Positions 33,326-39,300 of a DNA stretch of 64,000 bases are shown here, in pieces. The first letter of the stretch is position 1, and every line of letters starts with the position of its first letter. The DNA is from Escherichia coli. GTDB lineage: Bacteria > Pseudomonadota > Gammaproteobacteria > Enterobacterales > Enterobacteriaceae. The stretch lies in assembly GCF_003018115.1 (NCBI RefSeq), contig NZ_CP027458.1; one strand, given 5' to 3'. Position numbers: made by a program.

Positions 33326-36300
33326 TCATTTCAATAAACCTGGCGACCTCTGCCATCCCTTCCTGATTTTCAGCCTGCCAGCGTTCAGCACGCAGTCGCC
33401 GGGCTTCGTTCTGCATGGTCGTACTGACCAGACCGGAGATATTCACGTCATACGCCTTGAGCAGCTGATAGCTGTCGCTGTCAACTGTCACTGTAATACG
33501 CTGCTTCATAGCACGCCTCTTTTGACATACTTCTGGTATGCATATCAGTATATATTATTATGATGCAAAAATCAGCGCATTAATACACATACTGTTATCT
33601 GGCTTTTAGTAAGCCTTATTTATTTTACCTTACATTATGTTAACCAATAAAAATTAAAATCAGACTTATAAAAACAAAGCGTAATTATCGAATGACCATT
33701 TCCGGCAGATCCGATTTTTCTGTTATTTACGGGTTTCCGGAAGTGTACCACGCTGAGGAAATCATCATATTGCTGTTTTCCTCCCCTGCGCGGCGCATCA
33801 CAGGTCAGGGAGATGACACAATATATAGTGCCATGAGCAGCTGAACTAAGCACTACATGTTGTGCTTACGGGAGATAGCGCTGTGCGGAGGGAAAGGAAG
33901 ATCCTGAACAGCCGGAAACCGGATCTGTGCGGCAGAGAACGGGCAGGAGATATGATAATTAAGCAGCACACATAAAATCATATCAGATATGATTTTCACC
34001 ATTAAATACAAAACCATATCTGATATTATCAGAAATCAATAACACACAAATCATGCAGGATGTGATTTTTACCTTTAAGAACATTATCAGATGGAGCGTG
34101 CAGGATGGATGAAGAAAGGGTGTTTTCACTCAGCTATGAACAACTAACCCAGTTTGCGGAACGACGCATCCGGGAATGCAATCTGGACAGCCAGGGCGCG
34201 ATTTATCTCTGCGAGTCAGCCAAAGCCGGAGCCGTGCTGATCTTCTGGCATGAACTGGCCATAAATGGCTATGCCTCAATGAATGCCATAAAGAGACAAG
34301 AGCTCATTGACGCCGACGTTCAGCGCCTCAGAAAGCTCATCTGGCCGGAGGATGGCTGGAAATGACTCAGAGCCGCCGACCGTCGCCACTGCAGCGGAGA
34401 GTGCTGATTGTGCTGGCTGCCCTTGATGAAAAACGACCGGGCCCCGTGCTGACGCGGGACATAGAACGGGTGCTGGAGCGAAGCGGGGAAGCCCCGGTCT
34501 ACGGGCCAAACCTGCGCGCCTCCTGCCGTCGTCTGGAGGATGCCGGCTGGCTGCGTACCCTGCGCGCTCCGAACCTGCAGCTGGCAGTAGAGCTGACGGA
34601 GGCCGGCCGGGCTGTGGCACAGCCTCTGCTGCTGGCAGAACAAGACCGCCTCCGGGCAGAACAGCGTGCGGCAGAAGTCGTCGTACTGCCGCTGGTCCCG
34701 GCAGCAGGTCTGCCCGCAGATGGCACTTCTGCCACTGATCTGGAGGTGGAGCTGAACGGCATAACGTATCAGGGCTGCCGTGGGGATTTTGTGGTGCGTC
34801 TCGACGGCAGCACCTGTCTGCAGTTATGGAATAAAGAAGGCAGGGTTGTACGCCGGGAGGGCGATCCGCTGGAAGTGGCGCAGTGGCTGCAGGCCTGTCA
34901 CGATGCAGGAATGGAGGTTCGTGTGCAGGTTAATGAAAGCATCACCCCGTAAAAACATGCCTGCACGGTTTACACATCATCCCATGGTGGCAGCCGGTTA
35001 ACTTTCCTGCGCCACCAGTGGAAAGAGGCCGTGAGCAGTCCGAACAAAAAACCCCCCGTGATACTTATAATTATGGCCTCACCTGCCACCATTCCTGACG
35101 GCCCCCAGTAGATAAACCACATTGCACATCCCCAAGAAATGCCCCATAAGCTCCCCATCAACAGCGTGACCTGCCAGAACGGCATAAAGGGTAATGGCGG
35201 AAGCCGGATACCCAGCCGCCAGAGAATACACAGAAGAGGAGGGGCATAATTGCTCCGCCACATCTTTTTGCTATCCATCAGGGCAATGGCCCGGGCTTTT
35301 TTCTGCTCAAAGGTCACAGGAGCACCTCCGTTCCATGATGTAAACGTGACACAGCTTATTGTTATTGATTATTATTATCATGCTGTGGTTATGTTGTCAT
35401 GCATCAGTACACTGACAAAAGTACAAAAGAAAGGAAAACAGGCAGATGAACAGAAAATATTATTTTAATAATATGTGGTGGGATGGGTGACGGGGGGATA
35501 TATGCTGTATATGTCATGGGATTATGATTTTAAATACAGATTACTGTTCTGGTGTATTTCTCTCTGCGGAATGGTTTTGTATCCGGTTGCAAAATGGTAT
35601 ATTGAAGATACAGCTCTGAAATTTACCCGGCCTCATTTCTGGAACAGCGTTTTTTTTGCTGATACACCTGGAAAAATGGGATTGCTTGCTGTTTATACGG
35701 GTACTGTTTTCATATTATCTCTTCCGTTAACTCTGATATATATTCTTTCTGTTATTATAAAAAGGCTGTCTGTAAGATAGACAGCCTTAAATACCCCAGA
35801 ACTTATTCGCTTTTTCCACAAGCGTTTCATCAATCAGTGCACCGATGACAGCCATCAGTAAACCATATCCGATAATGCCTAAAGCGCTTCCGGTAAGAAT
35901 ACTGAAGACCAGAGCAACAAGAGCCGTTGCGGCATTACCTGCTATGATGGTTTCTGTTTTAACAAAAAAAGGACGCCAGTTACCTGTCCGAGCAGCCTTA
36001 CCAAACTCAGTGATCCAGTCGGCAAAATTTGTAATTTTTCCTGCATATCCCAGTCCGCGACGGAACCTGTTCAGATTAGACGATATATCAGACAGTTTCA
36101 CAGCCATAGCCCCCGCAGAAAGAGTACCTGCGAGAGACGATATTCTGTACGGTTCATATATTCATCCGAGGCAGGAATATCGGCCCGGTACAATCTGTCC
36201 GGGCCGGATGGGTAATTTACAGGATGTTCGCGATGGATTTAGCCAGCTGCTCTTCCAGTACAGGCTTCGCTTCTTCAAACTTCAGGTTAACCTTGTTGGC

Positions 36301-39300
36301 ATTAGATACCACACGGGTTTGGTATTTATGCTGATTTCCGGTTGATGTGCTGGTCTGCATTTTTGCACCGGAGGTTCCCTGACGGAGAGCTGCAACATTA
36401 TCAGTTCTGACTTTAGATGTTGTCCGCTCTGCAATCTGCACATCCGTGATCATGGTGTAGTTGATATCCTCCACCATTGCATCGGCTGCCATACCAATCA
36501 ACCCTGTGGCAATCCCTACACCCAGCGCCGCACCGGCAGAGCCGGAGTTATATCCTGTGATGCCGGTTCCCAGAGCTGCACCGGCAATGGCACCTTCATA
36601 ACCGCTGTTCAGCCAGGTCTGGGACTCCCGCAAATCCATTTTGTCTGCCTTCAGGACATTGGCCTGGATCCAGTAGTATGCCTTGTCAGGTGAGGTCACA
36701 ACCTGGTAGCCTTTGGCTTTAACGGCATCACTGATTTTTGCCTGTAATCCGCTCATATCCTTGTCAGATGTGTTTTTGATTTGCAGGAAAACGGTGCGTT
36801 CACTGGAAGGCTCCAGCCAGATGGTTTCACTCATCTGAGTTTTGACTTCAAGATTACGCTTCTTGATTGCTGTGCTCATCGCACCACACCCTGAAAGGAC
36901 CAGAGTGGAACTGACCAGGGTAACTATCATCAATTTTTTTGTTTTCATCAGAATATCCTTTTAACTAACAGACTCTTTTTTGAACAGACCTATTACTGAA
37001 ACTATTGCGGAGATATTATAACGATTTATGTCTATAACATAAATAAAGGAAAAATCATGACCTTCGAAATTAATAAAAATTAATATAAGAGTGTTGGTGC
37101 AAATGAAAGCATTGAAAAAACAATAAAAAATGATAAAATAAAAGTTTTATTCTTATTATAGTTAAATGTATTAGCTCAGACCTGAGCTGACAGTTACCGG
37201 TTATTTATACAGGTATCTGTCAGATTACATCTGGCTTAAATTTTTCTCGGCCCAGATGCACTTTCCATCAAGTAACGTTTCCATTGGCGTCCGCCCATTG
37301 CACATTTTTCCCTGATGGGTTCGCTCATTATTATAGCAAGTCATATTCGTCGTGTACTGGTCGTAACTCTGTTTTACAGAGTTCAGGACTGCAGACAGTT
37401 GGTCCCCCTAGAATCGGCATTATTGTCAGTATGGCTACTGGATTCGCTGACCATGCGATTAATAAAGTAATCACTTATTTCTTTAAAGTCTTGTATAGCT
37501 CTGGCACCAATATCATGACTAGCCCATGAACTATTACTGGCTTCATGTGAATAATTTCTTTTCGAAGGGTAGCCCAACTACCTGTAAAGACAGACTTCAG
37601 AAAAAACAGTGCTCGCCGCAGACCGGTGACCGGGCGAAGCCCGCGAACTGGCGAGGAAGCGCAATGTATCTGTAGTTACAGTGAGCAGGTACGCCCTGAA
37701 GCCCTTATAAGCGGTTGTGTATGCTGTTTCCCCTAGGATGATTTATCCACATATCCAGAGGTTCGATCCAGTAAACAGATCCATGAATGATCAACAAAGG
37801 ATCCATTAAAGATCCCCATATCTCTGCAAACCTTGTCACTCATGGGCCGGGACCACGATCACATAAGCTGTGGCATGTTACTAATAAACTGTAACATGCT
37901 AATAATAAGCTGTATTCAGTAATCCATATACTGAAGTAAGTTAATGACATAAACTATGGTCAGTACGCCAGACTCAGTTGTTAAATACAGGCTGCAGGTT
38001 TTTCTTCAGTCAGTTAGCGGGGCTCTGACACACGATTTGCTGTTTATTCTTTTACTGTCCACAGGCAGGAGGCTTTCTGGAAAACGAAAATTCAGACATC
38101 AAAAAACTGTTCGGCGAGGTGGATAAGTCGTCCGGTGAGCTGGTGACACTGACACCAAACAATAACAACACCGTACAGCCTGTGGCGCTGATGCGTCTGG
38201 GCGTCTTTGTACCGACCCTTAAATCACTGAAGAACAGTAAAAAAAATACTCTGTCACGTACTGATGCCACGGAAGAGCTGACACGTCTTTCCCTGGCCCG
38301 TGCAGAGGGATTCGATAAGGTTGAGATCACCGGCCCCCGCCTGGATATGGATAACGATTTCAAGACCTGGGTGGGGATCATTCATTCCTTTGCCCGCCAT
38401 AACGTGCCTGGTGACAAAGTTGAACTGCCTTTTGTCGAGTTTGCAAAACTGTGTGGTATACCTTCAAGCCAGTCATCCCGCAGGCTGCGTGAGCGCATCA
38501 GCCCTTCCCTGAAGCGCATTGCCGGTACCGTGATTTCGTTTTCCCGTACCGATGATAAGTACACCCGGGAATATATCACCCATCTGGTACAGTCAGCCTA
38601 CTACGATACTGAGCGGGATATTGTGCAGTTACAGGCAGATCCCCGCCTGTTTGAACTGTACCAGTTTGACAGAAAAGTCCTTCTCCAGCTTAAGGCGATT
38701 AATGCCCTGAAGCGACGGGAGTCCGCCCAGGCACTCTACACCTTTATAGAGAGCCTGCCCCGGGATCCGGCTCCGATATCGCTGGCGCGGCTGCGTGCAC
38801 GCCTCAATCTGAAGTCTCCTGTATTTTCCCAGAACCAGACGGTCAGACGGGCAATGGAGCAGTTGCGCGAGATTGGATATCTTGATTACACGGAGATCCA
38901 GCGGGGGCGGACAAAATTCTTCTGTATTCACTACCGGCGTCCCCGGTTAAAAGCGCCGAATGATGAGAGTAAGGAAAATCCGTTGCAACCTTCACCTGCG
39001 GAAAAAGTCAGTCCGGAGATGGCGGAGAAGCTTGCACTGCTTGAAAAACTGGGCATCACTCTGGATGACCTGGAAAAACTCTTCAAATCCCGCTGAACAT
39101 AAACTGTAGTCAGTGAAGAGCGCTCTTTTACTGACTACAGCTTATATTAAAAGGTGCAGTCAGTGGTCTGCTCACTGTAGTTTATATTCAGATTCCTGCT
39201 GTGCACTCTGTAACTGAGCTGCCATCTGCCTGCTCCTTACGTAAGTGACCCCGTAACCTGATGCTGAGGCATTGCTCCCTTCATAAAACATGACTTACTC

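Follow-up and report, generated by a model that had tools for sequence, protein, structure and literature searches.

The window, a stretch of 64,000 nucleotides of Escherichia coli plasmid DNA (contig NZ_CP027458.1), contains a complete traT gene that lies between a colicin gene remnant and the RepFIB replicon; traC, cut short by the left edge where the tra operon leaves the window, is ∼35 kb away (Table 1). An earlier note, made from the sequence alone, had described this arrangement, and all of it was borne out. The orphan ORF is uninterrupted, and the Pfam TraT profile PF05818 matches its product over the whole profile (positions 1–214 of 214, E 4.5e-82), with a score of 275.4 bits against a curated cutoff of 31. 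Three solved TraT chains, 9fs5_A (E 7.7e-129), 9e2v_A (E 1.3e-128) and 9fsm_A (E 5.4e-118), each align to residues 21–243. Read by eye, the N-terminus is a lipoprotein signal ending in LSGC, with the lipobox cysteine at position 21; the lipobox cysteine of F TraT is likewise Cys21. The full-length TraT domain, the lipobox and the signal peptide are all shared with F/R100-type IncF TraT (PDB 9E2V, 9FS5). The orphan protein differs at ∼30 of 243 residues (∼88% identity by count) from TraT of pSTEC413, which we take to be F-type and which stood in for F in this comparison. A tblastn search found no second TraT in the 64-kb window. Members of the TraT family are decameric outer-membrane lipoproteins that act in surface exclusion and have been implicated in serum resistance (PMC11733297, PMC12658005).

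Table 1. Features of the orphan traT locus and its setting (positions in the window)
Feature	Position	Strand	Remarks
traC, 5' part	1–∼949		tra operon leaves the window at the left end
Colicin E1-type immunity gene, apparently intact	35475–35780	+	Pfam PF03526, E 1.3e-6; annotated in relatives
Remnant of a colicin pore-forming domain (its C-terminal half)	35787–36107	-	abuts the tra relic
Native traT downstream spacer, ∼120 bp, with hairpin	36096–36216	-	∼95% alignment to pOkiPb01701_2
Orphan traT	36217–36948	-	intact ORF, 243-aa outer-membrane lipoprotein
traS 3' end (∼last 207 bp, ∼69 codons) and traS–traT spacer	36949–37166	-	pSTEC413 alignment
IS481-family transposase gene, 3' remnant, 173 bp	37164–37336	-	between traG and traS relics
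Internal traG fragment, 184 bp, non-coding relic	37340–37523	-	∼codons 673–735 of ∼941-codon traG
RepFIB repA replication initiator	38119–39096	+	ORF; divergent from traT; annotated RepB-family initiator

The colicin remnant matches positions 91–184 of 185 of Pfam PF01024 (E 3.1e-25) and is annotated by RefSeq as a pseudogene 'missing N-terminus'. The RepFIB region is 96% identical to its pO157 counterpart. The colicin immunity gene and RepFIB repA form the two boundaries of the orphan traT module.

The earlier note also held that neither traS, traG nor traD lies beside the gene. There is indeed no trace of traD, but pieces of the other two are present. Window positions 37166–36221 align to pSTEC413 4001–4948, which corresponds to traS nt 304–510 running on into traT, at 82% overall; the traS relic alone is 84.9% identical to pSTEC413 traS, and its matches to traS genes range from 75 to 85%. 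The adjoining IS481 remnant matches unannotated DNA of other plasmids at 97%, and at the equivalent of window ∼37225–37338 RefSeq places a pseudogene, 'IS481 family transposase, incomplete, missing N-terminus'. The traG relic is 88% identical to pS19_141-a, 85% to CP024291 and 82–83% to pSTEC413 and pOkiPb01701_2. On the other side, the canonical pOkiPb01701_2 locus aligns at ∼95% to window 37058–36096, through traT up to the junction with the colicin remnant (∼36096), where the tra-derived DNA stops; the spacer downstream of traT holds the start of the small ORF that normally comes after this gene. These alignments identify the orphan traT as the core that is left of a decayed traG–traS–traT block. 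Unlike IncF traT, it does not lie between a functional traS and traD but stands beside RepFIB with traD absent, and the canonical IncF arrangement, with an intact traS upstream, traD downstream and an operon driven by PY, was not found here.

The orphan retains the ribosome-binding site native to F/R100-type loci, along with the sequence just upstream. An AAGGA ribosome-binding site (36956–36960) and a perfect TATAAT (37015–37020), the latter with a weak -35 only, are conserved in four of the five aligned loci, and on the strength of this conservation we presume 36949–37166 to be the native traT promoter region. At the thresholds used, a consensus promoter scan called no sigma-70-like site on the minus strand ahead of traT, and the same scan found no canonical terminator downstream. 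A GC-rich hairpin does follow the gene (36181–36206, -21.3 kcal/mol, z -2.73), with no T-run after it. Canonical F traT is said, after work by Jalajakumari et al. in 1987, to have its own promoter just upstream and a terminator downstream.

Of 5,426 complete E. coli genomes, 52 carry the orphan block, its junctions (IS481 remnant and colicin fusion) unchanged. It is carried by pO113-EH41 at 97.2% identity and, across the pO113-type STEC plasmids (pO113-EH41, CP045214; pO104_H21, KM085450; pO104_H7, CP009105), the same module and junctions recur at 97–100% identity, in the order ccdA/ccdB, two hypothetical genes, a DUF6404 gene, the colicin remnant, traT, the IS481 remnant and RepFIB. A query containing traT and traG matched these ∼160–176 kb plasmids in one place only, with no second traT/traG match; the orphan is apparently their sole traT, whereas the lineage of the window has a complete F-like operon added. 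The transfer region of pO113 itself has been described as IncI1/R64-like (PMC3817090). Among the best 25 PLSDB rows, 24 list traT in a gene table that omits pseudogenes. The orphan traT is an ordinary, already annotated feature of the virulence plasmids of pO113-type Shiga-toxin E. coli, and we found no description of the relic in pO113 in the open-access literature. In pO157 Sakai the module is absent and the ccdA–RepFIB interval holds other genes, one of them annotated KfrAs; pO157 shares the ccdAB–RepFIB–ehx backbone. Strain RM10466 carries the orphan on the pO113-like CP028382 and an operon-type traS–traT block on a separate 67.7-kb F-like plasmid, CP028383, a pair in keeping with the window's plasmid type having arisen as a cointegrate. 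The module query also matched 1,072 chromosomal places. We rejected these as chromosomal traT, since a traG–traS–traT–traD query gave only 38; the excess probably stems from the non-tra parts of the query (IS481 or colicin fragments).

No record in the plasmid collection or among the complete E. coli genomes matched the whole window, and its right-hand 22–25 kb reached at best ∼95–97% identity there. The closest complete relative, pS19_141-a (CP075641), is 99.92% identical over window 1–38118, and has an intact traG–traS–traT–hyp–traD operon with the orphan ∼52 kb distant. All five plasmids with an operon traG–traD block of the pS19_141-a type have traG–traS–traT–traD intact, the block being 99.8–99.9% identical in the other four. 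Since these five relatives keep the operon genes, and the orphan shares only 95.6% identity with their operon traT, two traT genes of different origin are very probably present on the window's plasmid, as far as its relatives can be taken as a guide.

A different arrangement is seen in CP024291, whose operon has neither traS nor traT between traG and traD; tblastn found no TraT in this plasmid other than the orphan. An unrelated lipoprotein gene takes the traS–traT position there, together with a gene annotated as encoding a heavy-metal-binding-domain protein. (A 243-aa 'hypothetical' gene beside traD, considered as a divergent TraT, was rejected as unrelated by translation and by tblastn.) Together with the single traT seen in the window itself, this plasmid lends some weight to the idea that a rearrangement brought the operon's own traT to the orphan's position, where it is now the sole copy, and that the operon lacks traS–traT. 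However, while its 2.2-kb traT region is 100% identical to the window, CP024291 as a whole is only 97–98% identical and of a different tra lineage; the tra and leading region of the window is instead 99.9% identical to CP075641, CP027375, CP027581 and CP129265, all of which keep traG–traS–traT–traD intact. The relics beside the orphan also differ in type from the operon genes (the traG relic is 88% identical, and the traS relic gave no detectable match to operon traS of the pS19_141-a type), and the same relic is present in the pO113-type plasmids that gave no second traT/traG match. Such a move is very unlikely. The earlier note had offered retention after rearrangement or a second copy as explanations; both stand in part, except that displacement of the operon's own traT does not, and the possibility it raised that circular topology simply places the operon traT here is excluded.

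The two traT genes of CP075641 lie on the same strand and their products share 96.7% amino-acid identity, as might be expected had the orphan arisen by a recent duplication of the resident operon traT within the plasmid. The degree of divergence argues against this: the alignment of the two copies has 32 mismatches in 749 nt (95.6% nucleotide identity), 29 of them in the 732-nt CDS, where 21 are synonymous, giving a dS of 0.136 and eight amino-acid differences. Homology extends past the CDS by only 13 nt on the upstream side and 4 nt on the downstream side, and the flanks further out are unrelated. The closest canonical allele found, that of pOkiPb01701_2 (dS 0.055), is nearer to the orphan than is the co-resident operon copy, and its homology extends 120 bp downstream of traT. 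Furthermore, identical junctions are found in plasmids with no second traT/traG match, so the module predates the cointegrate. A recent duplication is thus highly improbable, and the 95.6% identity, taken with traS and traG relics of a different type, indicates that the orphan came from another, older F-like transfer region.

One of the differences between the copies, at residue 136 (G in the orphan, S in the operon TraT), is in the proposed specificity pentapeptide, which is GSAGA in the orphan, SSAGA in the operon copy and NSAGA in F. We rejected this change as a functional difference between the two copies: NSAGA, NSAGG and SSAGA variants (F and pED208-type) gave equal exclusion, GSAGA being outside the tested set (PMC12658005).

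The orphan alleles themselves were compared for signs of selection. Eight of the nine aligned are full length, that of CP023164 being frameshifted. The CDS has 22 variable sites in 732 columns, and 15 of the 22 variable codons are synonymous against 7 non-synonymous; the flanking relics vary at 2.1–4.6% of columns. A rough chi-square calculated by hand, setting 7 of ∼560 non-synonymous sites against 28 of 830 variable flank columns, gave p ∼0.01, with counts taken from the allele alignment and the ∼560 sites estimated rather than computed by a tool. Between the two orphan lineages the pairwise dN/dS is 0.107. This variation fits purifying selection to a modest degree. Flank diversity is low, however, and there may simply not have been enough time since the module arose for a neutral gene to decay. 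Synonymous sites in the CDS are apparently more diverse than the flanks, and gene conversion with co-resident traT alleles, as opposed to vertical descent, could be the reason.

These results bear on whether the gene is inert cargo, an intact-looking relic, unexpressed or unselected, that hitch-hikes beside the essential RepFIB and is as yet undecayed. Its neighbours are all truncated relics (traG', IS481', 'traS and the colicin remnant), the scan gave no consensus promoter, the low flank diversity suggests that little time has elapsed, one allele is frameshifted, and pO157 is without the module despite the shared backbone. Against this, traT is the only whole gene of the tra block and has kept 218 bp of native upstream DNA and the hairpin, the excess of synonymous variation and a dN/dS of ∼0.1 point to constraint, and the canonical F gene reportedly has a promoter of its own. 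We consider inert cargo unlikely. Alternatively, the orphan might be a selected stand-alone cassette of RepFIB/ehx virulence plasmids, constitutively expressed from its own promoter, which would limit the entry of F-like plasmids into hosts of plasmids that have no F-type transfer system (pO113 type) and add serum resistance, and which may have made the operon traS–traT dispensable in CP024291; this is doubtful, with a small chance of being correct. Incoming F-like plasmids would, on such a reading, compete with the F-family replicons of pO113-type plasmids.

The explanation we favour, and think likely, is that a relic F-like traG–traS–traT segment has become fixed beside RepFIB, with the intact traT as its sole survivor and a second traT in the operon. 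An old segment of this kind would have been cut down by deletions and by insertion of an IS481-family element until traT alone was left intact, and the remains would have been fixed in a variable patch between ccdAB/resD (a RepFIA remnant) and RepFIB of the enterohaemolysin (ehx) virulence-plasmid backbone. That backbone is common to the pO113-type STEC plasmids, whatever their present transfer system, and in the lineage of the window it would have been combined with a complete conjugative backbone of F-like type that brought a traG–traS–traT–traD of its own. With its native upstream DNA and hairpin, the orphan is most likely transcribed alone, and its predicted product is most likely a normal TraT outer-membrane lipoprotein decamer. 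By analogy with known TraT, it would reinforce surface exclusion of F-like donors and modest complement resistance; on plasmids that have no operon copy it would be the source of both. Other traT genes of Enterobacteriaceae also lie outside tra operons, as in the genomic island of E. coli ED1a, which has an IncF-clade traT without a tra operon; such genes have been read as mobilised from IncF plasmids or left stranded by them (PMC11733297). Genes of the ED1a type are chromosomal, whereas the orphan is plasmid-borne and accompanied by recognisable traG and traS debris.

The orphan traT is a case of ordinary plasmid mosaicism, which implies no new mechanism and has little importance beyond bookkeeping. 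As a relic, it records that an F-type transfer region was at one time part of the ccdAB–RepFIB–ehx backbone, or recombined with it, before the present transfer systems were acquired, and the shared traG'/IS481'/'traS junctions make a handy lineage marker for this backbone. STEC surveys widely score traT as a 'serum-resistance' virulence marker (e.g. PMC10025531). In pO113-type plasmids a traT-positive call reflects the relic gene and not a functional F transfer system, and in cointegrates such as the window's plasmid two different traT alleles would count as one.

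By all the sequence criteria tested, the orphan traT, which lies between the colicin remnant and RepFIB repA, is a bona fide TraT. In a profile search its product matches the Pfam TraT family (PF05818) along the entire length of the profile (275 bits, E 4.5e-82), residues 21–243 match the solved decamer chains 9fs5, 9e2v and 9fsm (best E 7.7e-129), and the N-terminus closes with the lipobox LSGC. The complete traT of the earlier note was thus borne out, with both neighbours present, and the tra operon does run off the left end of the window after traC: the edge cuts through this gene, and transcription of the F-like operon proceeds leftwards past it. 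Within the 64-kb window, tblastn found no second TraT.

Features of the orphan traT locus and its borders (window positions)
Feature	Coordinates	Strand	Remarks
Colicin E1-type immunity gene	35475-35780	+	Apparently intact
Colicin pore-domain remnant	35787-36107		One side of traT; profile positions 91-184 of 185 only
GC-rich hairpin	36181-36206		3′ of traT; -21.3 kcal/mol, z -2.7
traT	36217-36948	-	Uninterrupted 243-codon ORF
′traS relic and traS-traT spacer	36949-37166	-	Aligns to last ~207 nt of canonical F-like traS plus spacer
IS481-family remnant	37164-37336	-	Foreign DNA; transposase gene 3′ remnant in RefSeq, in identical plasmids
traG fragment	37340-37523	-	Internal (about codons 673-735); 82-88% to various traG
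RepFIB initiator	38119-39096		Other side of traT; ORF

On the minus strand, the order 5′ of the gene is ′traS plus spacer, IS481′ and traG′, the prime marking a truncated gene. The alignment of the traS relic with pSTEC413, a plasmid with a canonical F-like traS–traT locus, continues through traT at 82%, and traS matches range from 75 to 85%. On the 3′ side, ~120 nt of spacer (36216–36096) are ~95% identical to the post-traT DNA of pOkiPb01701_2, another plasmid with such a locus; a small ORF begins within this spacer, beyond which the colicin remnant takes over. The earlier claim that neither traS nor traG stands beside traT therefore fails, and only its traD part holds, as traD sequence is absent from the locus. 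Taken together, the traS relic, IS481 remnant, traG fragment and native spacer indicate that the locus is the eroded core of a traG–traS–traT block, of which traT is the sole whole gene left. The orphan is not part of a canonical traG–traS–traT–traD locus.

The orphan immunity gene, beside a colicin gene cut to the C-terminal half, directly adjoins the orphan traT. In alleles of pO113-type plasmids (~160–176 kb STEC virulence plasmids), the post-traT small-ORF start is fused in frame with the pore-domain remnant (36096–36170; pO113-EH41 locus L014 4399–4770), giving a 123-aa product annotated ‘colicin-like pore-forming protein’; the window's sequence differs by 1 nt, which disrupts the fusion, and its remnant ORF begins at 36107. 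Between the traG fragment and RepFIB, a 306-bp stretch (37576–37881) is 97% identical to unannotated DNA by IS21 in the Escherichia albertii plasmid CP117596, and 53 bp (37608–37660) match an inverted 53-bp pair around IS629 in pO157 (81%).

The window comes from an STEC virulence plasmid of the ehxCABD, RepFIB, saa, espP type with an F-like transfer region. No record in the plasmid collection or the complete E. coli genomes matches it whole; positions 1–38118 are 99.92% identical to pS19_141-a (CP075641, 133 kb). The operon there runs from traG to traD by way of traS (a surface/entry-exclusion gene of 167 aa), traT and a hypothetical gene; the orphan is ~52 kb away, and tblastn finds exactly two TraT genes. 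The tra and leading regions of CP075641, CP027375, CP027581 and CP129265 are 99.9% identical to the window; these four and CP073590 carry the intact operon block at at least 99.8% identity, and each of the five has two traT-containing places, which makes it very probable that the window's plasmid also has two traT genes.

The right side (38119–63014) matches CP075641 at 98.5%, then not at all for 2.5 kb (52060–54544, near a YadA-like adhesin gene), then at 95.9%, and finds nothing better than ~95–97% in either collection, which marks the source plasmid as a recombinant without a representative there. The leading region has three ~540–600-bp repeats (12544–13144, 18177–18777 and 21467–22007; 91–96% identical) close to its ssb, psiB and antirestriction genes; they may be single-strand-promoter-type elements, which recur in F-like leading regions. 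Relative to CP024291, a related plasmid, there is a 1.6-kb insertion (943–2543) between traC and traR with four small hypothetical genes, among them a pair of tandem paralogues (1835–2242 and 2238–2648) that are 76% identical.

The suggestion that the orphan is a second copy stands as regards gene number in the relatives, but not as regards descent. Orphan and operon traT are 95.6% identical over 749 nt, with 21 synonymous and 8 non-synonymous differences in the 732-nt CDS (dS 0.136), and homology stops 13 nt 5′ of the ATG and 4 nt 3′ of the stop. On the orphan's side, the traG fragment shares only 88% identity with the resident gene, and nothing in the resident traS corresponds to the traS relic. 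The traT of pOkiPb01701_2, canonical and on an unrelated plasmid, is nearer to the orphan (dS 0.055) and shares its downstream spacer. Given this divergence, the unrelated flanks and the closer allele elsewhere, we reject duplication of the operon gene.

The module (traG′–IS481′–′traS–traT–spacer–colicin remnant) is present in 52 of 5,426 complete E. coli genomes (at least 80% coverage) and about 40 PLSDB plasmids, including pO113-EH41 (97.2%, same junctions), pO104_H21 and pO104_H7. The ~160–176 kb pO113-type records have a single match place for a query with traT and the traG piece, and the transfer region of pO113 is described as IncI1/R64-like (PMC3817090), which argues that the relic belongs to the ccdAB-...-RepFIB-ehx backbone and is older than the present transfer systems. 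In pO157 Sakai the flanking backbone is 92–96% identical to the window's and the ccdA–RepFIB interval is occupied by other genes, which makes it a variable patch. In strain RM10466 the orphan sits on a pO113-like plasmid and an operon-type traS–traT block on a second plasmid, F-like and 67.7 kb in size, which makes it plausible that the window's plasmid type arose as a cointegrate. In CP024291 (O178:H19) traS and traT are missing from the F-like operon, and by tblastn the orphan is the only traT. Its traG–traD interval (75122–77296; locus L002 37123–39297) holds a gene for a 263-aa predicted lipoprotein (MDIKKNIIIVFATTLLGGC...), which might be an alternative exclusion protein, an opposite-strand gene annotated as heavy-metal-binding-domain, and an unrelated 243-aa hypothetical protein.

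Of the 25 best PLSDB rows, 24 list traT in a gene table that omits pseudogenes, and eight of nine aligned orphan alleles are full-length, that of CP023164 being frameshifted. The nine differ at 22 codons (15 synonymous, 7 amino-acid-changing), with 2.1–4.6% of columns variable in the flanking relics and a pairwise dN/dS of 0.107 between the two main lineages. This variation fits purifying selection, though the counts are low and the module is still young. Synonymous diversity of the CDS looks greater than flank diversity, perhaps through gene conversion with co-resident traT alleles.

The 218 nt 5′ of traT are native traS–traT DNA, with a perfect TATAAT (37015–37020) and an AAGGA ribosome-binding site, both kept in canonical loci. 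A consensus scan called no promoter or terminator at the orphan. Jalajakumari et al., in a 1987 paper with the title words ‘promoter and terminator activities’, are reported to have found a promoter belonging to F traT itself and a terminator after the gene. We infer that the orphan would be expressed autonomously.

The expected product is an outer-membrane lipoprotein of the TraT family, in which the solved members assemble into decameric rings (PMC11733297, PMC12658005); by analogy it would exclude F-like donors at the cell surface and confer modest complement resistance, as expected of the family. The region once thought to set exclusion specificity reads GSAGA in the orphan, whereas it is SSAGA in the operon copy and NSAGA in F TraT; in a structural study of 2025, variants with NSAGA, NSAGG and SSAGA gave the same exclusion (PMC12658005), a set that GSAGA falls outside. 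We consider it unlikely that selection keeps the orphan as a stand-alone exclusion/serum-resistance cassette of the RepFIB/ehx backbone, able to replace a lost operon copy. Its situation is ordinary plasmid mosaicism: traT stranded outside tra operons is known in Enterobacteriaceae (PMC11733297), and this gene is already annotated traT in dozens of RefSeq plasmids. The present analysis adds the relic's exact anatomy and its probable coexistence, in the window's lineage, with a second, non-identical operon traT.
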